DNA of 64,000 nucleotides. It comes from a virus. The notes beneath the pieces were generated by a model. The model searched no databases. It worked only from the letters and a program-made list of their open reading frames with translations, and had not been told where the DNA came from. The stretch covers positions 67,938-131,937 of the IMG/VR virus record IMGVR_UViG_3300045988_114508; one strand, given 5' to 3'. Positions within the stretch are counted from its first letter, which is position 1. Each line of letters opens with the position of its first letter. Shown in pieces: positions 19,901 through 38,065 of this stretch. The position numbers and the translations under genes were made by a program.

Positions 19901-20390
19901 GGTAGAAAAAACCAATCTCAAACGTCTCAGTGTCTATGCCGGCACGTTCCTTATCATGCAGGCCGTATCTATGCTTCTTGCCGGATGGCGTGATGATGAT
20001 GAAAACGAAGAAAGTTGGCTTACTCAATTTGGATCCTATGTCGGATTCAGAACCATAAACGAAATAGCTTCACAGATGCCGTTTATTATGGAGCTTAACG
20101 TGGTAGATATCATTAACGATCCGTTTGTTATGGGGCGAAAACTGAAGGATCTTACCGATCTTAGGAATTATTCACTTGATAAAGTAACATCCGGTACATA
20201 CAAGGGAGAGTCTAAGTTATTTAGGCAACTCGCCAAACAGACGTTTATCAAACAATGGTATAATATCAAGACGCCGGAAGACGTAGCGCGCGCCTATAAT
20301 TGGTGGCAGCAGACGAACAACAAGTCAATGATGTTCTTCATCGGCGCCACTCCTGATTCGGAAGGTGATGAGGATACAAGCTACAAATAG
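13944..20390 (+). CDS. giant protein (2148 aa), function unknown; candidate virion-packaged/ejected protein, cf. the large cargo/RNAP proteins of crAss-like phages
   Basis: 6.4-kb uninterrupted ORF behind its own promoter and terminator; size class matches crAss-like virion RNAP/cargo proteins, but no DxDGD-type catalytic motif found (closest: DIDKGFD, YDADGNE); long alpha-helical/coiled-coil-like middle. Confidence 0.6.
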   Translation: MASTCIIKRDNKKKVVSVSTRSGDRSMLFDKIASVPLMENRERATTVFKTVFSNKFLKAFGDWRKRVPINKQAYNKVKSNIDLIPEAYRERVLDKASKMSNPVLVSKSDAPYEIQESGFGFYSQDLGDNIMLVDAMVPSSISVPEGPGIDAGQYLQDAISSDFTPVSMVQDKGVNYMVIKDGLKIFSPEELPETDSNPVGVTYQTGEPRLFFMNDRSQLFEDYGEALRSGGNDIRIGFLSGTVQESTVDGVADITYKAGKYVLNNPKSFIPVMTASASTSLSTKGGIINYLIKKGLLSGSKIFDPETRSYYLTGEGHTGQIRLFNSALSYTELRNHFGSDVSMNDQGMITISSLDNSKVTMRLATGGTERVSREQIKNDLKSGRYNELDAKYDHFDALVVSFILEDNDLYADTKAKIVSDYSRQERDQRNSIVEILKTLGVSVIGMTDYIEKYQTKYGHEPSAKALADIANNVIAVGEDATLSDLVEETAHFLVEAYRDQNAVEAVLQDVEGTEEWNQYAGQYYNTYGKVYEGAELDNAVRREILGKILAREMQTGTAQAPVEPTSFLGRVRQLFYGIVSWLKSALSTQRQDLNNVIKNIRDLAITDIDKGFDTSLLKDNDFTLYSLSSMNKNKFLESKIRSLRKTLRDLRQISSDRAVTTSMTLAQLKIIEDKINKVETEIDKNEMAAAMNSMISTAEAQVRYLSNVVNTILHGDTKDGKLHFNTNDRKNVDIINNQVLPIMNDLRGYIRNRSTEFDEREKQDYTNRINTVIADINGVQSDIKSVQDLDESTLLDKLMNELHVPADKVKRVKEFFDKVQHDVSWISRWFGILEHSSSPFNNALGAMIAKDNYNAMVNAQPAISDFLAYAKKHGFNKSEFEKLLQKVDGKTSNYLRSALDMAKYDRNKKLAQMRAFATAMNIEISEEEINDVVDNNRNYVFKREVVDKDGNTVTENAKFKPSSDRVNTDIFTIEQEKIYTEQMEKWDAENSELEFSESYATRMESIYKKAEEELGHPVSQTTKEYLNALSRQKRILRQPFIDSGGNFDEVAYFKSSNYEEEGLLRKQRKEAASEYIYVGTRRVEKTGDQLKMAKEIQAINEVWRKESNNVTNAVSESFLQKLRTIQSESGGEAALKTLMLGGHLSFNDRFWNDVESEQSARTESNNKASYLKMAHDIISSTTSDRDATDVDSVVKDIEKNKAIIKEIIGNNRDVADIGEINEATFTLSERDAFRAASEAIEADYAILIDYAKMVGLEDIDKYLTKSSKAENEVNQSYLNALADSKEVEWKFVQRHTTAKKAKRIQALRDKLFKAADNRYLFTVSETNYLSEKLGISKELDGRDFRNAVNAKMASLFLNNTREEGIEADIKAGIEEANAIVNEFARSQVFSYYKRMAPTGYAAMIDKIGRGEIDVAQMVKDVQNGTSTQDYGMDISYLSFDPARAWVAESEAENSGRNPDYVKDHGYGHRMPKKSLYRDESYFNDFGIKYDADGNEVATKNVEQWNMIQKLKEIKRQSLDLYKEQSPNLYAIPQISKQDIERIEGLGINFKNTVRNFVSDLCLDRVDDSLYGKTRQGEVYDPEDRLRSIPKYYIYELENQDDVSHDFGYSYSMLMMQSSLYNEKQKSIELAQGLEQMLLNKQFEGGKKAEATQAYQMFRDFFNDHYYGIRMNTKKLTVNIGGYTVDLTRIMMAVERFMSVMNLALSPFVAATGALTGHINLIMESAVGQYISKDSLKYASAEFSRLAPSCIAETGDIDRKSKLYVIGERMGIFNIRNRMYGAGYNRAARTLMRSPMYAFMEILNYPLDPQVMIATMDNVRYYKGRFYTFQDFKMEKERNKEQSTIKREWNALKDRTLWSMVDVVDGKVVVKPGSGVTVEEVETQMAITRNQVRSLSQICNGSLNEENRTAASRNWIARFMTAHRGWLVLAAQRLWKRRGFNFQTMQEEEGLSITLKNMIAKTFSLASESGMKNIIDVWNENKDNMNEVEKTNLKRLSVYAGTFLIMQAVSMLLAGWRDDDENEESWLTQFGSYVGFRTINEIASQMPFIMELNVVDIINDPFVMGRKLKDLTDLRNYSLDKVTSGTYKGESKLFRQLAKQTFIKQWYNIKTPEDVARAYNWWQQTNNKSMMFFIGATPDSEGDEDTSYK

Positions 20391-20602
20391 ACGAAGAATA
20401 TCGAGCTTACATTACTTTGATGTGAGCCAGATATGTTATCTTAGCATTGTCAAAGAGTAGACTATACGTTTTTTGTTCTTACTTTAAGGTTATGTAGGTT
20501 TAATTTTTTCTGAAATTGTTTTCTTACCGGTTCTCAGTCAGAGATGATAGGGAACCGGTTTCTTTTATGTTGTCAATTATTGCTATCTTGCAAACAAAAA
20601 TC

Positions 20603-21016
20603 ATGAGACGAAGATTTCAAATAGGGATGGGGGTAAATCCCTCGCTTATAATCAATAAAGGCATATACATCCAACATGTAGATGGAGGATTATATACAAA
20701 AGAAAATTGGTCTAATAAAGGATATTCCAATGATCTATGCAATGGAATAGCTCTTGTAGATAAAGTGTGTTTTGTTATAGCCACCGAATATATTGGCACA
20801 TCTCGTTGGGGTAAGGATGGAGAAATAGACAATATATTTGCACAAGATAGTTCTCATATTGGAACTATTAAAAAGGATTATTGGGGGCGTGAAAATCAGA
20901 ATGCGTATCTTGAATATGATACCAGTAATACAGATTACGCTTTTAATAAAGCTAATAGCTATTTATTTAAAAATGGTCAAAATGGATATGTAGGTGGCGC
21001 CGGAGAGTTTTTTTGA
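20603..21016 (+). CDS. small protein, MRRR(F/Y) N-terminus family (copy 3)
   Basis: ATG 20603 begins MRRRFQIG; N/Y/G-rich like the 4269 and 4886 genes. Confidence 0.45.
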   Translation: MRRRFQIGMGVNPSLIINKGIYIQHVDGGLYTKENWSNKGYSNDLCNGIALVDKVCFVIATEYIGTSRWGKDGEIDNIFAQDSSHIGTIKKDYWGRENQNAYLEYDTSNTDYAFNKANSYLFKNGQNGYVGGAGEFF

Positions 21017-21219
21017 TATCATTGTATGCTAATGAAATAAATGAATGCCTTTTAATGGTAGGAGGTACGATAATGAGTAATAGAATGTGGACATCCACTC
21101 GAAATACAAAATTTACCTATTCGTGGTATTATGATATAAACATCCAAGGAGATCATTTGGATACAGGTTCAAGGGGTAGTTCACATTATGTCCGCCCTTT
21201 TACTGAATTAATTTTATGA
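21013..21219 (+). CDS. hypothetical small protein (68 aa)
   Basis: ORF with ATGA overlap to the previous stop. Confidence 0.3.
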   Translation: MISLYANEINECLLMVGGTIMSNRMWTSTRNTKFTYSWYYDINIQGDHLDTGSRGSSHYVRPFTELIL

Positions 21220-21223
21220 AATT

Positions 21224-21673
21224 ATGAGAAGAAGATTTGAAAATATTAAGACAGTTGCCGGCGTCAAGATCCCTGTTTTTGCTTGTTCGATTTCGGCCCC
21301 TACAACCACATGGCGAAATCCTGTACCTATTCTTGGTTGTAGATACCGATCTAATGGAGCAACTATGGCGGCTTCCTATGTTTTAGATGAAATTAATAAT
21401 AGCAAGGTATGTACGATGGGCGGTAATCCTATAAATTGTACGATATCAAATTCTGGACAATATATCCAGGCTTACTTTAATGAAGGACAGGTAACAGGTG
21501 ATATTATATTACAGTTTACGATTGGAGACGTTTTTTATTATTTCTTTATTACAGAAGGGTCCAATCAAGTACCTCAACTGAAATTAAGTCCAAGTACTCA
21601 CCTTATTCATTCAATATATAAGATAAGTACAATTGGCAGCTTTGTTCCTATTGACACCTATGTAGAATTATAA
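21224..21673 (+). CDS. small protein, MRRR(F/Y) N-terminus family (copy 4)
   Basis: begins MRRRFENIK; Cys/Asn/Thr-rich. Confidence 0.5.
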   Translation: MRRRFENIKTVAGVKIPVFACSISAPTTTWRNPVPILGCRYRSNGATMAASYVLDEINNSKVCTMGGNPINCTISNSGQYIQAYFNEGQVTGDIILQFTIGDVFYYFFITEGSNQVPQLKLSPSTHLIHSIYKISTIGSFVPIDTYVEL

Positions 21674-21743
21674 TAAAAGATATAAAAATGGTACTAAAAT
21701 GTATTAGTATAAGATAAGACGGTTATTAATCATATATTACAAT

Positions 21744-21780
21744 AATCCCCAACCGTACACCTATTGTATGGCCGGGGATT
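21744..21780. terminator. hairpin at the convergent junction (bidirectional terminator candidate)
   Basis: AATCCCC-N23-GGGGATT between the convergent genes ending at 21673 (+) and 21788 (-). Confidence 0.35.
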
Positions 21781-21787
21781 ATTGTAG

Positions 21788-22045
21788 TTACCATCTTTTC
21801 TTGTAACAAGAATCCACTACCTTTACCTTTTCTTCTTTGTTCTTACCATAATTAAATTCATACGCATCTTCGAATGAATAAAAAACAGCATAACACGCCA
21901 TGCCAAACATATCGTATTTTATCCTGTTTTTCCATTTCCCAAAAATGTTTTGATATTGGCACCAATATTCTACCTCTCCATTAGTTAATTTCCTTTCAAC
22001 TATTCTAATAGAAATATGAAATAAGTTTCTAAGCATTAACTTCAT
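21788..22045 (-). CDS. hypothetical protein (85 aa)
   Basis: last gene of the long minus-strand array. Confidence 0.4.
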   Translation of the reverse strand: MKLMLRNLFHISIRIVERKLTNGEVEYWCQYQNIFGKWKNRIKYDMFGMACYAVFYSFEDAYEFNYGKNKEEKVKVVDSCYKKRW

Positions 22046-25446: not shown

Positions 25447-25684
25447 CTTTTTCGTTTTGTTTTTGGATTGTCAAGTACAGATCTCCGTCTTCACATACTT
25501 CAACTTTTTTCAAGAAGCCTATCATTTCATCTCCTGCTTCGTGTAAAATACGGATCTTATCTCCTTCTTTTAACCCATAATTGGAATCAAAATATTCTTT
25601 TTTGATTCTATCAATATTGTCTTTATGGTTTTTTATAGCATAAAGCTCTTTTCTTAATAAATAATTTAGTTGTTCTATTGTCAT
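25376..25684 (-). CDS. hypothetical protein (102 aa)
   Basis: ORF; 3' end overlaps the MTase start by ~70 nt. Confidence 0.4.
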   Translation of the reverse strand: MTIEQLNYLLRKELYAIKNHKDNIDRIKKEYFDSNYGLKEGDKIRILHEAGDEMIGFLKKVEVCEDGDLYLTIQKQNEKGDRGRGIWNMYLSSKSIKIEKCV

Positions 25685-26226
25685 TTCTTTTCCTCCTTAT
25701 TTAATGGTATCAACCCTTTTCCATGCTTGTCATACCACAGCATAGCTATGCAGTTCCATGCACATTGTGCAAGATGAAAACATCCTGTATCGGAATCCAC
25801 TCTTTCTCCTTTCATGTATTCCATCAGGTGTCGAAACATTGCAGCTCGATACCGTTCAAACCCATTGTCAAGGTTCTGCCATTTATTGGGTCCGTACTTC
25901 TTTGCACCAGCATGATAGACTCTTACAATATCCTCAATCTCTTCCATTGGAAGCAAATCCCATCGTAGTTTATCGTCAATGATGTCATTCTTTACCGACT
26001 TACTTTCTTTATTTTCAAAAAGAGTATTATCACTCTTAGATATATATTCAACTGGTACATCGAACTTCATACGACCTTCGTATGACAGTGTAACTTCTGT
26101 ATCTCCTTTTTTGATATCCTTTTCACATGCAACCTTAAGTCCTTTTCTGGCTACTGTTACTTCACGAACATTAAGATCTCTGTTAAGAACTACATCGGTT
26201 CCTTTTTTAATAATAATATCGTCCAT
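25681..26226 (-). CDS. putative nucleotide pyrophosphohydrolase-like all-alpha domain protein (DUF550 / dATP-dGTP diphosphohydrolase N-domain-like)
   Basis: W..L..E..ED..RVYHAGAKKYG...W....GFERYRAAMFRHL.....GE..DSDTGCFHLAQCAWNCIAMLW resembles the conserved core of phage DUF550-type proteins; assignment made from memory of the family signature. Confidence 0.35.
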   Translation of the reverse strand: MDDIIIKKGTDVVLNRDLNVREVTVARKGLKVACEKDIKKGDTEVTLSYEGRMKFDVPVEYISKSDNTLFENKESKSVKNDIIDDKLRWDLLPMEEIEDIVRVYHAGAKKYGPNKWQNLDNGFERYRAAMFRHLMEYMKGERVDSDTGCFHLAQCAWNCIAMLWYDKHGKGLIPLNKEEKK

Positions 26227-30514: not shown

Positions 30515-31534
30515 TCATCGTTTTATCTTTTTAGACGGATCCCAATCTGAAGAGAAAGGGCATTCGTTTTTGTTATGTAATCCAAAGTCACAATAATAAC
30601 ACAGTGCTGACGGGCAGGGTAGCTTGTTTTGCGGAACAGGCTGACTTAGGGTGGCGCGCCGCTTGCTATACCTGGCTCCTTCTGCTCCCTGGATGTACGC
30701 TTGAAATGTTTTTACACTATTATCTTCAAAATCATACATTTTGGATAAAGTGTCATTTAGCATCTCTATAGATTTTGTTTTACGTTCCTCATCTACCTTA
30801 ACCTTTTGGTACTGCCTGGTTCTGGTAAAGAAATAGATGTTCATATCTGGCAAAACTCCACCATATTTTCTATAGATGTAAAATGAATATATAGGATGCT
30901 GTAAATTCGTTTCCAATTTCTTAGAATCAAAAACCTTATTTCCTGATTTCCAATCTATGACATAATGGTGAACTACGTTCTTGCTTTTTATAGCCAGATG
31001 AAGGTCTACCGATCCTACTATGTACACATGTGTATGAACGTCACCATTTATATCAACAGGCTTAGGAAGACGATACGGCAGCACAAAATCTTCTTCGACT
31101 CCAACTATAGCGCCGTGTCTGATAAGTTTTTCACAGGGATTAAGATCACTATCAGCTATCATAAACCTATTGCCGTCTTTTTTGAACAGATCCACAATCC
31201 AAGCAAGAAGTTCCCCAGATTGCTTCATGGCCATCATCATATTTTCCGGTGATTGCCAAGGTATGTCTTCTTGGTAAGCATAGTAACTTATCGCTTCTCC
31301 AAGGTCTTTACCAGAAGGCTGTCTTCCGTTCTTAAAAAAGTATTCCAGTGTCTTATGGATAACCGTACCATAAGACGTAGCTTCTTGTTTTTCCGTAGAC
31401 CTTTTGCCCTCTACGTAAGTCTTATACCATTTCATTGGACAGGTAAGAAACGTATCTATCTGGGAATAAGATATGGCAAGACGTTTCACACCATTAAACT
31501 CCTTATATAGCAAATGCGTTTCCGGGACCATCAT
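30515..31534 (-). CDS. Cas4/RecB-like PD-(D/E)XK nuclease with Fe-S-type Cys cluster
   Basis: motif I GTVIHKTLE, motif II VGSVDLHLAIK, motif III VIDWKSGN, QxxxY motif LQHPIYSFY; N-terminal Cys (LTCPMKW) plus C-terminal CPSALCYYCDFGLHNKNECP. Confidence 0.6.
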   Translation of the reverse strand: MMVPETHLLYKEFNGVKRLAISYSQIDTFLTCPMKWYKTYVEGKRSTEKQEATSYGTVIHKTLEYFFKNGRQPSGKDLGEAISYYAYQEDIPWQSPENMMMAMKQSGELLAWIVDLFKKDGNRFMIADSDLNPCEKLIRHGAIVGVEEDFVLPYRLPKPVDINGDVHTHVYIVGSVDLHLAIKSKNVVHHYVIDWKSGNKVFDSKKLETNLQHPIYSFYIYRKYGGVLPDMNIYFFTRTRQYQKVKVDEERKTKSIEMLNDTLSKMYDFEDNSVKTFQAYIQGAEGARYSKRRATLSQPVPQNKLPCPSALCYYCDFGLHNKNECPFSSDWDPSKKIKR

Positions 31535-31890: not shown

Positions 31891-32053
31891 AATGCTTGGT
31901 CAGTTCTTCTGGTTCTAAATCTTGTCCAAAATCCATGTTAAAAATATCGTAATTAGTAAAGCACTTAAAATCACTATTCCTGCTGGCATGAAATCTATAA
32001 ATGCTGCTTTTGCTTCTTCAATTAGGCCCAAGTGTAACCTTGGGCCGTTGTAT

Positions 32054-33754
32054 TTATTTTTTGTCATCTCCTTTTAACTTCTTTAAAGTATCTGCAATCG
32101 GAAGCTGATCAATGACTCCCAATGCCGGAGCGACGGTCTTGACAACATTGTTAAGGAAATTACCGGTACTGTTCTGACCGCCGTCAAATACCGTGATATT
32201 TCCGAGGTTAATGTGCTCAAATGCCTTAACCTGTTCTCCGGCAATTTCTTTCCACTGATTAACCATCTTGTACTGGATGGCGATCTGAGGATTGGATTCT
32301 GCTGCTTCCACCATAGCCTTAAATCCGTCGGCTTCTGCCATCAACGATTTTTTCTTACCTTCGGCTTCTGCCTCCAGCTTCATCTGAATAGCTTTTGCCT
32401 CCGCCTCAGCTTTTGCCAAATGTGCTGCTGCCTCTGCCTCAGCCCGGCGTTTGATCTTCTCGGCCTCGGCATCAGCTTGCAAGATAGCCTCTTCCTTCTG
32501 GGTTTCAGCCGGCACAATCTTTTCAGCCTTAAGCGCAGCCTGAACTTTCTTAGCCTTAGCTTCTTCCACTTCTTTATCAGCAAGCTCTTTTGCTGTTTTT
32601 ACAGCCGCTTCCGATTTAACTTTTTCTTCTCCGGCCTTCTTCTCTGATTGAGCTTTGATAATCTGTAGTTCTGATACTGACACAGCAACCTCCTTCTGGG
32701 CATTGTTGTATCCTATAGACGCATTTTTTTCAGCCTCAGCCTTCTTAATCTGAGCTTCAGAGTCTTGTATTGCTATAGCTGCTTCCTTGTCAGCTTCAGC
32801 CTTATTCTTTCCGACTTCTTCCATCCTTTCAGCCTCGGCTTTATTTACTTCAAGTTCTGCCTTAGATCTTGCGATCGCTGATTCCTTATCAGCCAAAGTC
32901 TTTGCAATAACCGCAGCCCTATCTCTATCGGCTTGAGCTACACCGATCTGTTTTTCTTTATCGGTTAAAGCCAAAGCTACTTCTTTTTCTTTCTTTGTTT
33001 CAGCTACTACCGTTTCCTTTTCTTTTTCAGTATAGGCAATTTGAATCTCTTGCTCTTTTTGGGTATTAGCTACAGCCGTTTCTTTTTCCTTTTGCTGTAC
33101 AGCAATCTTAATAGCACCCAGCTTTTCCTGTTCTTCGATATTAGCCTGTGCTTCGTTCAGGGCCTTACTTTCAGCTTCTTTGCCAAGATTCATGATATAG
33201 CCGGCTTCGTCTCTGATGTCACTGATGTTGATATTTAGGAGGTAAAGGCCTAACTTATTAAGTTCGTTATCAATGTTTTTTCTTGCCTTATCCAAAAACT
33301 CATCCCTGTCAGAATTAAGTTTTTCAATCGTCATTTCAGCAATGATCAAACGCATTTGGCCATAAACGATATCCGTAATAAGATTTTCAGTAGATTCAGT
33401 ATCCATCCCCAAAAGCCTTTCTGCTGCATTCTGCATAATTTCAGGATTTGTGCTGATTGCTACTGTAATAGTAGTAGGTACATCCACTCTGATATTTTGA
33501 GACGACAAAGCACCGGTGAGCCTACAATCTATTTGCATAGGCTCCATAGACAAAATATCATAGCTTTGAATAATAGGCAAGACGAATGCCGCTCCACCAT
33601 GATATAATTTCGCCGATTTCTTTTCCCCACCTGTCTTACCATAAACGACCAAGACCTGATTAGGCTTACATCTACGATACCTTGATAAGACTCCGATGAT
33701 TGTCAAAATAATCACTACAGCTAAGATAGCTGACACGTACATGATTGTTGTCAT
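32054..33754 (-). CDS. flotillin-like SPFH (band-7) domain membrane protein
   Basis: N-terminal TM helix, then VLVVYGKTGG...SPFH core; flotillin-type segment ISDIRDEAGYIMNLGKEAESKALNEAQANIEEQEKLGA; ~250-aa Glu/Ala/Lys coiled-coil of EA-type repeats; C-terminal oligomerisation-type tail. Confidence 0.75.
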   Translation of the reverse strand: MTTIMYVSAILAVVIILTIIGVLSRYRRCKPNQVLVVYGKTGGEKKSAKLYHGGAAFVLPIIQSYDILSMEPMQIDCRLTGALSSQNIRVDVPTTITVAISTNPEIMQNAAERLLGMDTESTENLITDIVYGQMRLIIAEMTIEKLNSDRDEFLDKARKNIDNELNKLGLYLLNINISDIRDEAGYIMNLGKEAESKALNEAQANIEEQEKLGAIKIAVQQKEKETAVANTQKEQEIQIAYTEKEKETVVAETKKEKEVALALTDKEKQIGVAQADRDRAAVIAKTLADKESAIARSKAELEVNKAEAERMEEVGKNKAEADKEAAIAIQDSEAQIKKAEAEKNASIGYNNAQKEVAVSVSELQIIKAQSEKKAGEEKVKSEAAVKTAKELADKEVEEAKAKKVQAALKAEKIVPAETQKEEAILQADAEAEKIKRRAEAEAAAHLAKAEAEAKAIQMKLEAEAEGKKKSLMAEADGFKAMVEAAESNPQIAIQYKMVNQWKEIAGEQVKAFEHINLGNITVFDGGQNSTGNFLNNVVKTVAPALGVIDQLPIADTLKKLKGDDKK

Positions 33755-33785
33755 AACTTTTAAAATTTAATTGTTGATAAAAAAA

Positions 33786-34280
33786 TTAGATACTTAATTC
33801 TCCTTCTTCATATTTTATATTCACCTTGTCGCCGTTTTTGTAGGTTTTTCCAGACAAGCATTTTACTCTCATTTGCTCTTGTCTTCCATTTTTCGAAATA
33901 TTTACCATATAATGATTCTTCCCTGATCTAAATACTATCTCAACTTCTCTTCCGTTTAAATCTTCCGGACATTCGTACACCATTTCTTGCTTTAACTTAA
34001 GAAGTAACTTATATACGTAAAACAAAACGATAAAGAAAAACGACCCTATCACAACCCCTACTAAATGGGAACCCGAAAAGTAGGTAGTCCAGCTATATCC
34101 AAGAATAAAATGTGTTATGCCCTTGAATGATATGATGTCCGACAAAGACATGCTTAAATCAGAAGCACTGTCAATGTCAATATCCGTATCCAGATCAGAT
34201 CCTAATATCGACAACAAAAACTGTATAACAAAAGCAAATGATGCTATTAAAGCCATGCATAAAATTATATCACTTCCCAT
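33786..34280 (-). CDS. NfeD-like membrane protein (SPFH partner)
   Basis: two N-terminal TM helices plus C-terminal OB-like beta domain (GREVEIVFRSGKNHYMVNISKNGRQEQMRVKCLSGKTYKNGDKVNIKYEEGELSI); lies directly upstream of the SPFH gene as in yqiJK-type operons. Confidence 0.55.
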   Translation of the reverse strand: MGSDIILCMALIASFAFVIQFLLSILGSDLDTDIDIDSASDLSMSLSDIISFKGITHFILGYSWTTYFSGSHLVGVVIGSFFFIVLFYVYKLLLKLKQEMVYECPEDLNGREVEIVFRSGKNHYMVNISKNGRQEQMRVKCLSGKTYKNGDKVNIKYEEGELSI

Positions 34281-34521
34281 ACCCTTCTGTTATTATTTTG
34301 TAAACAAGATCAGTCATATCTTTGATGGTCTCCATATCATAATCAATAATAACAATATTGAATTTTTGTTCCACCATCACATCAAGCTCAATTCGATCAA
34401 CAGAATCTAATCCAAGTTCTTTAAACGTCACATCTTCTTCATGAACTATATCTATTTCCGAATTAAGAAACTGAGTAATAATTATATCCTCTATTATCTT
34501 TCTGATTCTTACTTTTTCCAT
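34270..34521 (-). CDS. acyl carrier protein-like (83 aa)
   Basis: ...FKELGLDSVDRIELDVMVEQKFNIVI... matches the ACP helix-II phosphopantetheine-attachment signature (LG.DSLD.VEL.M..E..F). Confidence 0.6.
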   Translation of the reverse strand: MEKVRIRKIIEDIIITQFLNSEIDIVHEEDVTFKELGLDSVDRIELDVMVEQKFNIVIIDYDMETIKDMTDLVYKIITEGYGK

Positions 34522-35222
34522 TGCTTTCTAATTTTGTTAAATAAATACGTTTTTATGTTTTTCAATCGCTCTTTGTCTGTTTCAGAACTTCCGGTAAACA
34601 AATAATCCGGATTGCCTTTAGCCGGCGGCGTAGGCAATTTAGATACGGCAAACAACCAATCCATTTCCTTATTCTTCTTAGACTCCAAATAAGGCTCGGT
34701 AGCGATCTTAAATTTTTCAGCTATTAAGTCAAAGAGCTTTGAATTTTTAAGGTTCATATGAACTGAAAAAGCCTGAGAAGGCGGTTTCCATATGAAGTTA
34801 CATAAGCTCATTGTGTAATCTCCTGACTCTGCTATATAAGATTCTGTTACCTGAAGTATGACCTCTTTCTTAAATGAGGTGTTACCCATAAACCAACACA
34901 ATCTGGATTCCGCTTCTTTTCTGCTGATACCTATGTCTTTTGAATATGATTCGTACATTCCTATCATAATCTTCAACGTTTCCAGAACCTCGTCCGTCAT
35001 TTCCGGTGTCTCTATATAATTCACAAAAGACGTTCCTTTGTTGGTTAATCTCATCACGCCTGATTTTAATTTCTCAACCAGGCCAAGCTCTATATACCTC
35101 CCAGCATCTTCTTCCGGCATGGCTTCGATCATAACCGAATCCTTCTGTCTTATGGCAAGAAGATTAGCGAGATCATTAGGAGTCATGTCTGATGCTGCAA
35201 GTTGTCTGAAATTGATGTACAT
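34509..35222 (-). CDS. hypothetical protein (237 aa)
   Basis: ORF. Confidence 0.5.
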   Translation of the reverse strand: MYINFRQLAASDMTPNDLANLLAIRQKDSVMIEAMPEEDAGRYIELGLVEKLKSGVMRLTNKGTSFVNYIETPEMTDEVLETLKIMIGMYESYSKDIGISRKEAESRLCWFMGNTSFKKEVILQVTESYIAESGDYTMSLCNFIWKPPSQAFSVHMNLKNSKLFDLIAEKFKIATEPYLESKKNKEMDWLFAVSKLPTPPAKGNPDYLFTGSSETDKERLKNIKTYLFNKIRKQWKK

Positions 35223-36064: not shown

Positions 36065-37198
36065 TTAATACAATGACTGTTCTTCTTTTGTCTCTTGTTC
36101 TTGTTCCTGATTGTCCGTAACGTCTTCCACAGTATAGAGCTTAGGCGACGTCGGCGGCTGGTTGGGGTTCACGAACTTCGTCCCTCCCTCCCCGTACATC
36201 CATCCATGCCCCGGCAGGATCTCTGGGTGGATTGTATTAGTAAGCTCTTCCATACTAACTTGCCTTACCTTCAGTATATGATGAAACACCAGTCCGGCTG
36301 TCCTGAATGATGTTTTGTTTTCAGTTTTAAACCGGTCAAGAGTCTGATACCAATCTTTTCCAAATATCATATACTTATCCAGCCCGTATCTGCGAGGATT
36401 ATGCAAGCCTATCATTAACGTACATAGTTGTCCCAACGTATCAGATTGGTAAAAATCAGAAAGACGCGGAGGCTGCTCTTGTGGGCTTTTTATCCTTCCT
36501 TCTATCTCTCTGTTGAATTGTGATATGATGAGGAAAAATATGTTTTTATATACTAATTTAGCTTCGTTCATAACCGCCACCAAATCATCTATAGCCGACT
36601 TAGGATCTAACCCCATTCTTTTTATCAAAGCAATATGATCGACTTTAAATATTATAAGACGTTTGTCTTTGTGTTTGGTAGCTATATGATACACAGCCGC
36701 CTCAAACTCTTTTACCGTACACGGAGCATCGATGTATATTATATTATTCCTGATTTCACCTTGAAGGATTTCAAACATCCTCATCTCTTCCACTGTATTA
36801 GAATCTTGCCTTCTTAGTATTTCAGGAGCCCGCTTTTTCATATCCTGGCTCATTCTACGAAGAAGAAGATCTTGAGGATTCATTTCGAACTCGCAATTAA
36901 CAAGAAAATAATCTTCTGCTTGCGGGTTGATCATCGGATTCATCACATTTTTCAATATCTTTTGGGCCACATACGATTTACCCACAGATGGCCGGGCTCC
37001 TATAGCAATAGCATGCTGAGGAAAAATACCTCCAAGCAAAGCCTCATCAATATAATCGTATCCGGTTTTAGCGGGGATAAGCTCTCCCCGCCTGTATTTC
37101 AAGATATTCTCATACGCCTCTTCCATGACCTGTTTAGAGGTCTTGAATATCCTTCTTATATCTATCCTATTTGCTATCTCCTCGTGCATTTTTGTCAC
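36065..37198 (-). CDS. DnaB-family replicative DNA helicase (RecA-like C-terminal domain; reduced N-terminal domain)
   Basis: Walker A IGARPSVGKS, Walker B LIIFKVDHIALI, H3 IISQFNREIEGR (SQLNR-type), H4 RLSDFYQSDTLGQ. Confidence 0.8.
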   Translation of the reverse strand: MTKMHEEIANRIDIRRIFKTSKQVMEEAYENILKYRRGELIPAKTGYDYIDEALLGGIFPQHAIAIGARPSVGKSYVAQKILKNVMNPMINPQAEDYFLVNCEFEMNPQDLLLRRMSQDMKKRAPEILRRQDSNTVEEMRMFEILQGEIRNNIIYIDAPCTVKEFEAAVYHIATKHKDKRLIIFKVDHIALIKRMGLDPKSAIDDLVAVMNEAKLVYKNIFFLIISQFNREIEGRIKSPQEQPPRLSDFYQSDTLGQLCTLMIGLHNPRRYGLDKYMIFGKDWYQTLDRFKTENKTSFRTAGLVFHHILKVRQVSMEELTNTIHPEILPGHGWMYGEGGTKFVNPNQPPTSPKLYTVEDVTDNQEQEQETKEEQSLY

Positions 37199-37498: not shown

Positions 37499-38065
37499 CT
37501 ATTTCAACCTGCCGTAGCTCATATCAGGATCACACCAGACATACCCGTCTTTCTCATCATGAAGATACTCAGGACATCCTCTACATGCGCTACTTCCTGA
37601 CACTATTTGATTGTTCTTATTAGGGCACTTATCTCCAGGCTTATGCCATTCTATTCTCGAACCTGATCGCTCTTTGTTTACATGACAGAATTGAAATACT
37701 TTTCCCATCGTCTTCTCGCCAAACATACCTATATGTGTGTATTCTTCCGGTATAGAGAGAAATTCAGATAAATCTTTATACATCCTTTCCCGTTCCTCCG
37801 GCGTAGACCATAGTCTGTCAAGTTCGGCATGGACTCTTATCTTAAGAGATCTCAGTGATGGCCCCGCAAGCCGGCCTTTAGCTTTTCCCTTATTCGGCCC
37901 TGATTCATGAACACCGACATAAGCGTTGCATGGTTTACACATCATAACCATCCCTAAGCCTTTTCTGCTATATATTTTATCGGCATTTACCAGCTCAGTC
38001 TCTCTTCCGCAATAAGGACAAATTTCGCCTCTTAAAACCCGTTGTTGGCGCTCATTAAGTTCCAT
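37499..38065 (-). CDS. Zn-ribbon protein (188 aa)
   Basis: CPYCG...CKPCN and CRGCPEY...C pairs. Confidence 0.5.
   Translation of the reverse strand: MELNERQQRVLRGEICPYCGRETELVNADKIYSRKGLGMVMMCKPCNAYVGVHESGPNKGKAKGRLAGPSLRSLKIRVHAELDRLWSTPEERERMYKDLSEFLSIPEEYTHIGMFGEKTMGKVFQFCHVNKERSGSRIEWHKPGDKCPNKNNQIVSGSSACRGCPEYLHDEKDGYVWCDPDMSYGRLK

Follow-up and report, generated by a model that had tools for sequence, protein, structure and literature searches.

The window analyzed here, a stretch of 64,000 nucleotides from a virus (IMG/VR record IMGVR_UViG_3300045988_114508, positions 67,938 to 131,937), includes three consecutive open reading frames (ORFs) on its minus strand that encode an acyl carrier protein (ACP)-like product of 83 amino acids (window positions 34270-34521), an NfeD-like product of 164 amino acids (33786-34280), and a 566-amino acid flotillin (32054-33754). 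The three ORFs lie where an original prediction, made from the letters of the sequence, had placed them, and both peptide signatures quoted in it are present in the ACP and the flotillin. Over about 5 kb that include the locus, the window shares 95.5% identity with GenBank OR575929, the 151-kb genome of the human gut phage crAssE-Sib, which is an epsilon crAss-like phage (PMC11054128); on the basis of this identity the window can be considered as belonging to an epsilon crAss-like phage. Its flotillin is 100% identical to that on the IMG/VR contig 3300045988_105165 (151,444 bp). The annotation of OR575929 lists the three products as "acyl carrier protein", "transmembrane protein" and "flotillin family protein", respectively. 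The flotillin and ACP genes had therefore been named before in GenBank and are not unannotated novelties; the paper describing crAssE-Sib makes no mention of the flotillin, transmembrane protein or ACP genes.

The ACP and NfeD-like genes overlap by 11 nucleotides, and the NfeD-like gene is separated from the flotillin gene by a 31-nucleotide AT-rich spacer. The description of the three genes as overlapping thus holds for the first pair and not for the second, and the expression "fused in-line" was an overstatement, since the ORFs are separate. The start of the ACP gene in turn overlaps the preceding gene, coding for a 237-amino acid protein, by 13 nucleotides, and short overlaps of this kind are the rule across the whole leftward gene array of the window. 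Scans of the locus for sigma-70 promoters and terminators, which are unsuited to Bacteroides, gave results at background level.

The flotillin has the domain organization that had been proposed for it, that of an SPFH protein with a long coiled coil rich in EA. All of its features lie on the minus strand, as does the gene. An N-terminal membrane anchor is found at residues 4-22 (33689-33745; score of 2.83 in a Kyte-Doolittle window of 19 residues), followed by the SPFH domain at residues 30-211 (33122-33667), which matches Pfam Band_7 (PF01145) with an E value of 2.5e-25 and 90 bits, well over the gathering cut-off of 23.6. The signature YIMNLGKEAESKALNEAQANIEEQEKLGA begins at residue 186. The coiled coil, residues 213-449 (32408-33118), is rich in alanine, glutamate and lysine, with 62% of its residues being A, E, K or Q, and 20 EA dipeptides were counted across the whole protein. 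The C-terminal domain, residues 450-559 (32078-32407), matches Pfam Flot (PF15975; E value 2.2e-9; 37.9 bits against a cut-off of 27). The closest solved structures are those of human flotillin-2 (E value 4.9e-23) and flotillin-1 (E value 1.5e-18), QmcA being a marginal match. The protein reaches 146 bits with the NCBIfam FloT equivalog model NF058507, far under its 700-bit cut-off, and consequently it is not a FloT equivalog. No PHROG family matches either the flotillin or the NfeD-like protein.

Among near-identical phages (>90% identity) the length of the flotillin ranges from 464 to 595 amino acids, and the variable portion is the coiled coil; in two relatives, P0149 and P0154, it is shortened by large in-frame deletions that differ between them. 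Expansion and contraction of a simple DNA tandem array was considered as the source of this polymorphism and rejected because a tandem-repeat search of the flotillin gene found trivial repeats only. A cellular flotillin of 659 amino acids (P0158; L084, 6001-7980) has an internal duplication of about 95 amino acids that spans the end of the SPFH domain, which may be real or an assembly artifact.

The middle ORF required more than a Pfam search for its identification. The Pfam NfeD model PF01957, which had been suggested as a check, does not match it even at E≤10, NCBIfam and PHROGs gave nothing useful, and a profile built from four sequences found no match in the PDB. When 1.84 billion representatives were searched with a profile, on the other hand, a family emerged (E≤1e-3) that counts 423 clusters or more at 50% identity and whose members mostly have between 160 and 180 amino acids. 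An 84-member alignment of this family matches the solved C-terminal domain of B. subtilis YuaF, the NfeD partner of FloT (PDB 2k14; E value 0.033), exactly over the C-terminal 68 profile positions, and two of the 84 members reach the Pfam NfeD model by themselves (best E value 6e-5). A full-length homolog with 35% identity, BFVD A0A8S5RJ68 from virus sp. ctML55, carries the name "NfeD-like C-terminal domain-containing protein"; this entry also suggests that other viruses carry the module. An AlphaFold2 model of the protein based on an alignment of 83 sequences (mf7ce82daaf59) has a mean predicted local distance difference test score (pLDDT) of 89.4, rising to 95-98 over residues 110-164, and supersedes an earlier one from four sequences (pLDDT 72.7). 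It consists of three long helices (residues 2-26, 52-69, and 72-96), which make up the membrane region (residues 2-96; 33993-34277, minus strand), followed by a small five-stranded OB-like β-barrel (residues 110-164; 33789-33953, minus strand) that resembles the solved NfeD C-terminal domains. Hydropathy analysis gives two clear transmembrane segments, residues 5-23 and 76-94. The two transmembrane segments and the OB-type domain that had been predicted were hence recovered, with the difference that the model has three helices. Based on the YuaF match, the family members that reach the Pfam model, the predicted structure, the name of the viral homolog, and the operon context, we accept the middle ORF as an NfeD-type partner of the flotillin that is overlooked by current Pfam models, and we infer that its OB-like barrel is the flotillin-binding domain.

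Residues D33, S51, K53, G54, H57, and F58 are conserved in the partner family. Helices 1 and 2 are connected by an acidic loop of the type DxDxDxD (DLDTDIDIDS; residues 27-45, window 34146-34202), which is modeled with low confidence. The loop is a conserved feature of the 83-member family, in which D33 hardly varies, and could bind cations or be otherwise functional.

The partner and flotillin genes have an evident counterpart in bacteria. In a scan that considered one genome per species, flotillins with 62-67% identity to that of the window were found in 80 Bacteroidales genomes (Bacteroides, Parabacteroides, Phocaeicola, Prevotella, Leyella, and Xylanibacter), and in 79 of them a homolog of the partner (30-41% identity) is located about 40 nucleotides upstream of the flotillin gene. 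In the one exception only 50 nucleotides of upstream sequence precede the end of the contig. The same arrangement is present on a cellular contig from a metagenome, which also carries housekeeping genes; there, a related flotillin is preceded by a 165-amino acid protein that has no Pfam match and shows 39% identity to the phage ORF (E value 3e-40). On the chromosomes of the presumed hosts the pair is thus an ordinary operon, in agreement both with the statement in the original prediction that NfeD and SPFH genes form a classic cellular operon and with the generalization that NfeD is encoded by the first gene and flotillin by the second (PMC11222466). The uncharacterized "transmembrane protein" found beside the Bacteroidales flotillin is thereby identified as an NfeD-type partner as well. 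No relatives of the phage ACP or of the 237-amino acid and 50-amino acid proteins encoded on either side of the module were found within 4 kb of the host pair in any of the 80 loci.

When compared by domains, the phage and host flotillins (Bacteroides, Parabacteroides, and Prevotella) share about 80% identity over SPFH, 54-57% over the coiled coil, and 76-80% over the C-terminal domain. In a neighbor-joining tree, which carries no support values, the flotillins of two phage lineages cluster together, and their clade does not fall within any of the host genera sampled. The single clade, the 62-67% identity to the host proteins and the domain-wise divergence are read as the result of a single, old capture from a Bacteroidales-type genome by an ancestor of the epsilon crAss-like phages, which would have been followed by purifying selection.

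The flotillin gene is present on at least 165 IMG/VR viral contigs, and the ACP, the partner, the flotillin and the 50-amino acid protein gene are found, in the same order, in all 80 of the loci that were retrieved from IMG/VR for the lineage of the window (lineage 1). This gene order recurs in a second epsilon lineage, identified in seven places in ENA and Logan assemblies, whose replication module is syntenic throughout. The identities between lineage 2 and the window are 83% for the flotillin, 61% for the partner, and 35% for the ACP, and the overlap between the ACP and partner genes in lineage 2 is 11-20 nucleotides. The synteny in related phages that the original prediction proposed to look for therefore exists in both lineages. 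IMG/VR scans using the flotillins of the window and of lineage 2 returned lineage-1 contigs only, and as a consequence IMG/VR gave no distant viral synteny. Among 50,697 GenBank phage records, nine match the flotillin, and the only flotillin-annotated match besides crAssE-Sib is Vibrio phage KIT04. This low number, together with the absence of a PHROG family, confirms that flotillins are unusual in phages.

The strength of selection was estimated as the ratio of nonsynonymous to synonymous polymorphism (pN/pS), summed over pairwise comparisons with the window; as the pairs are not independent of each other, the figures are descriptive. The values for the flotillin (0.036) and the partner (0.059) are close to those for the DnaB helicase (0.054) and the PD-(D/E)XK nuclease (0.054), whose genes flank the module, so that the two proteins of the pair are held by purifying selection as firmly as DnaB is. 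For the ACP the value is 0.33, a constraint about six to nine times weaker than that on the pair. All of these values are well below 1, which indicates that the genes are real and under selection rather than chance ORFs.

A number of natural variants have lost part of the module. They are in-frame alleles in which the membrane region of the partner is fused to the C-terminus of the flotillin (corresponding to window positions 32054-34280; loci L257-L260), and therefore lack the OB domain of the partner and the greater part of the flotillin, including SPFH, with the ACP and the flanking genes intact. At least five different junctions were found (P0020, P0027, P0028, P0031, and P0033). Of these, P0033 is present in three sequencing runs, one of its contigs was seen in seven samples and its phage context is otherwise normal, while P0028 is located in a lineage-1 context. 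As these in-frame deletions occur naturally, the module must be considered accessory and not essential, and the variants are ready-made comparisons for its contribution.

The 83-amino acid product is a genuine member of the ACP fold, as far as profile comparisons indicate, of no assignable subtype. It matches Pfam PP-binding (PF00550) with an E value of 8.5e-6 and 26.4 bits, above the cut-off of 20.8, as had been anticipated, and the lineage-2 ortholog reaches 32.7 bits with the same model. PHROG 5934, "acyl carrier protein", matches it with an E value of 2e-8, and a profile of the ACPs from both phage lineages matches solved fatty acid synthase (FAS)-type ACPs (best E value 6.2e-13). The NCBIfam ACP models reach an E value of 5e-7, yet all equivalog cut-offs are missed; with the AcpP models TIGR00517 and PRK00982 the scores are 28-29 bits against cut-offs of 70-71. 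The motif LGLDSVDRIEL begins at residue 36, and the putative phosphopantetheine attachment serine is Ser40, within LGLDS (codon at 34402-34404). The attachment serine and its motif are kept in all 33 distinct ACP variants (78 of 81 loci; the locus L048 was not resolved) and also in crAssE-Sib and lineage 2. Substitutions cluster on the recognition helix that follows the serine, DS[V/I/L]D[R/Q]IEL[D/E][V/A/M/T].

At the loci L003, L027, L028, L034, L043, and L079, the ACP alleles are truncated, shortened at the N-terminus or of the read-through type. A deep search found 1,122 ACP proteins at E≤0.001 as clusters at 90% identity, an unusually high microdiversity for a protein of 83 amino acids, and the matches listed were only microvariants at 89-98% identity. 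A tblastn search of GenBank phages with the ACP (E≤1e-3) matched crAssE-Sib only. A search for a phosphopantetheinyl transferase (PPTase), an acyltransferase or a fatty-acid enzyme came out negative both in the annotation of crAssE-Sib and among the 30 ORFs of the window that were scanned with Pfam. If the ACP is modified it must then use a host enzyme.

The partner and flotillin genes are probably a host-derived membrane-scaffold operon, captured once by an ancestral epsilon crAss-like phage and kept functional since then. All domain parts have been kept, namely the anchor, SPFH, coiled coil and Flot domains of the flotillin and the helices and OB-like barrel of the partner. The pair may be co-expressed with the genes for replication. 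Its flotillin would insert in the inner membrane, with the coiled coil and the C-terminal domain mediating oligomerization, and the OB-like barrel of the partner would bind the coiled coil and stabilize the oligomer, as the OB-like domain of NfeD does with FloA (PMC11222466). Mixed assembly with the host flotillin is plausible because the SPFH and C-terminal domains are about 80% identical to those of the host. As a consequence the scaffold capacity of flotillin in the infected cell could be raised or replaced, keeping the membrane fluid and membrane proteins stable during phage replication and assembly. Flotillin has been described to control membrane fluidity (PMC7360373) and to stabilize unfolded membrane proteins without ATP (PMC11222466). 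The ACP, an addition of the phage lineage, would depend on the host phosphopantetheinyl transferase.

The physiological role of bacterial flotillin-NfeD pairs is debated, the proposals being scaffolding, membrane fluidity, and an ATP-independent holdase activity. The fact that these phages have kept the pair complete under selection of DnaB strength is independent evolutionary evidence that it provides something limiting in infection. Two considerations weigh against the scaffold interpretation: the mechanisms cited come from the FloA and FloT proteins of Firmicutes and may not transfer to a flotillin that scores 146 bits with a model whose cut-off is 700, and the deletion variants show that the benefit of the module is conditional.

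The original prediction regarded the three genes as one device, a notion that would give the ACP a specific role: after loading by the host PPTase it could deliver or hold acyl groups at the flotillin-NfeD platform, remodeling lipid microdomains of the membrane, or dock to it as a subunit. The overlap between the stop of the ACP gene and the start of the partner gene, present in both lineages, is compatible with translational coupling, the order of the three genes is common to both lineages in spite of an ACP identity of 35%, and the attachment serine is always kept. Nevertheless, the neighboring genes of the replication module are equally syntenic and often overlap as well, so that adjacency is unspecific here. 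The ACP has no relatives next to the host operon, its pN/pS is 0.33 compared to 0.04-0.06, some of its alleles are truncated, it is intact where the partner OB domain and the flotillin SPFH have been deleted, the flotillin of KIT04 has no ACP neighbor, and the enzymes that would make or transfer acyl groups were not found in the ORFs scanned. We find the three-gene device unlikely for these reasons. The absence of the ACP from host loci, its different tempo of evolution and its retention in the deletion variants lead us to treat it as a neighbor of the flotillin pair that was added on the phage side; a coupling between them is unproven and, on balance, disfavored. The more elaborate proposal, in which a phage flotillin-NfeD platform with a docking or acyl-feeding ACP constitutes a private lipid-protein microdomain for replication or virion assembly, is still harder to credit; if true, it would give bacterial viruses an equivalent of the raft-based sites at which eukaryotic viruses are assembled. 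A different use of the pair would be to subvert the host, with the phage flotillin co-assembling with that of the host or being overproduced, and in this way perturbing microdomains, division or FtsH-type proteolysis so as to arrest the host or tune a decision of the lysis-lysogeny style. The SPFH pair HflK/C, with FtsH, controls the stability of the CII protein of phage lambda. The domains of the window flotillin that are relevant for oligomerization are about 80% identical to those of the host and the coiled coil only 54-57%, excess flotillin in B. subtilis leads to defects in division and differentiation and stabilizes FtsH (PMC3892786), and epsilon crAss-like phages have repressor and anti-repressor genes (PMC11054128). 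On the other hand, the flotillin does not belong to the HflK/C type, its best solved matches being flotillin-1 and flotillin-2 and QmcA being marginal, and the stabilizing partner is also strongly selected, which is easier to explain by the need for a functional scaffold. Subversion is a tentative alternative that we consider improbable, although somewhat less so than the three-gene device.

The suggestion that the scaffold serves in superinfection exclusion or anti-defense, by blocking the entry of the DNA of other phages or by acting as a decoy for defenses that contain or sense SPFH proteins, fits the membrane location of the proteins and the fact that the module is accessory and deletable, a pattern typical of conflict genes. 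Conflict genes, however, usually evolve fast, and of the genes compared here, the flotillin and the partner rank with those under the strongest constraint. PADLOC found no match at E≤1 for the flotillin, the partner or the ACP; in a scan of the neighboring genes it gave two weak matches that were judged meaningless, and no defense or anti-defense genes were found nearby using Pfam, PHROG and the crAssE-Sib annotation. The role in defense or anti-defense that had been envisaged is accordingly very unlikely. Lastly, a locus of cellular appearance in a viral contig could be the product of a chimeric assembly of host and phage DNA, and the G+C content of the flotillin gene (0.422) is indeed higher than the mean of the window (0.374). 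The values for conserved phage genes are similar to it (0.408 for DnaB and 0.411 for a helicase), those for the partner (0.339) and the ACP (0.298) are AT-rich, and GC skew is continuous through the locus. Furthermore, the arrangement is present in hundreds of independent assemblies from IMG/VR, GenBank (crAssE-Sib), ENA and Logan, and the closest host flotillin is just about 67% identical. The probability of a chimera is thus negligible, and with no break in composition and an occurrence on many viral contigs as well as in crAssE-Sib the module is truly phage-borne.

The genes that surround the module, all on the minus strand, belong to the replication module, as had been recognized in the original prediction. 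On one side lies a DnaB-like replicative helicase gene (36065-37198; Pfam DnaB_C, E value 9.2e-17; PHROG 37407, 4.9e-41) and on the other a gene for a PD-(D/E)XK (Cas4-like) exonuclease (30515-31534; Pfam PDDEXK_1, 7.4e-21; PHROG 69, 1.1e-23). The gene directly upstream of the ACP (34509-35222) codes for a protein of 237 amino acids that is syntenic and 76% identical across the two phage lineages, has a pN/pS of 0.058, and showed no match in Pfam, PHROG or NCBIfam. Downstream of the flotillin, an ORF (31915-32067) that overlaps its stop by 14 nucleotides codes for a single-pass membrane protein of 50 amino acids with a transmembrane segment at residues 29-47. Its position is kept in lineage 2, where a 52-amino acid gene is found, and its sequence is not detectably so. 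Its pN/pS is 0.30, and it is an uncertain member of the flotillin module. The same gene array includes a gene for a protein with the N-terminal domain of dATP/dGTP diphosphohydrolases (25681-26226; E value 8.6e-26) and one for a DUF3268 zinc-finger protein (37499-38065) with weak similarity to the restriction-alleviation protein Lar (E value 8e-4). The sign of the GC skew flips at about 21 kb (window 20000-22000), where the plus-strand structural genes give way to the minus-strand replication and early genes.

The carrier lineage of epsilon crAss-like phages is highly prevalent in the human gut, and the strong conservation of the module in it makes the finding moderately interesting. To our knowledge, no epsilon crAss-like phage is in culture. 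Our review of the literature found no discussion of crAss-like phages with a flotillin or of phage flotillin-NfeD modules, and no tested function for the phage ACPs mentioned in genome papers, including that of the window.

The comparison with known systems can be made at several levels. The ACP resembles other phage ACPs in matching PHROG 5934 and FAS-type structures, and differs in that no lipid-synthesis gene was found to accompany it. Vibrio phage KIT04, a T5-like member of the Demerecviridae, also encodes a Band_7 protein annotated as flotillin (L170, 3929-5350), which has only about 34% identity over SPFH to that of the window, has no match to the Pfam Flot C-terminal domain, and has no neighbors matching Pfam NfeD or PP-binding; it is an independent acquisition. 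The yuaF-floT system of B. subtilis and the nfeD-floA system of S. aureus are likewise made of an NfeD protein and a flotillin, but they are remote in sequence: the phage partner escapes the Pfam NfeD model, the phage flotillin carries PF15975 and is far under the FloT cut-off, and the host of the phage is a Gram-negative anaerobe. The closest relative is the chromosomal operon of the Bacteroidales. Whereas the phage copy is located in a replication module, with the ACP gene upstream and the 50-amino acid protein gene downstream, the two have in common the gene order, a short spacer (31 nucleotides in the phage and about 40 in the hosts), the lengths of the proteins, and the layout of their domains.

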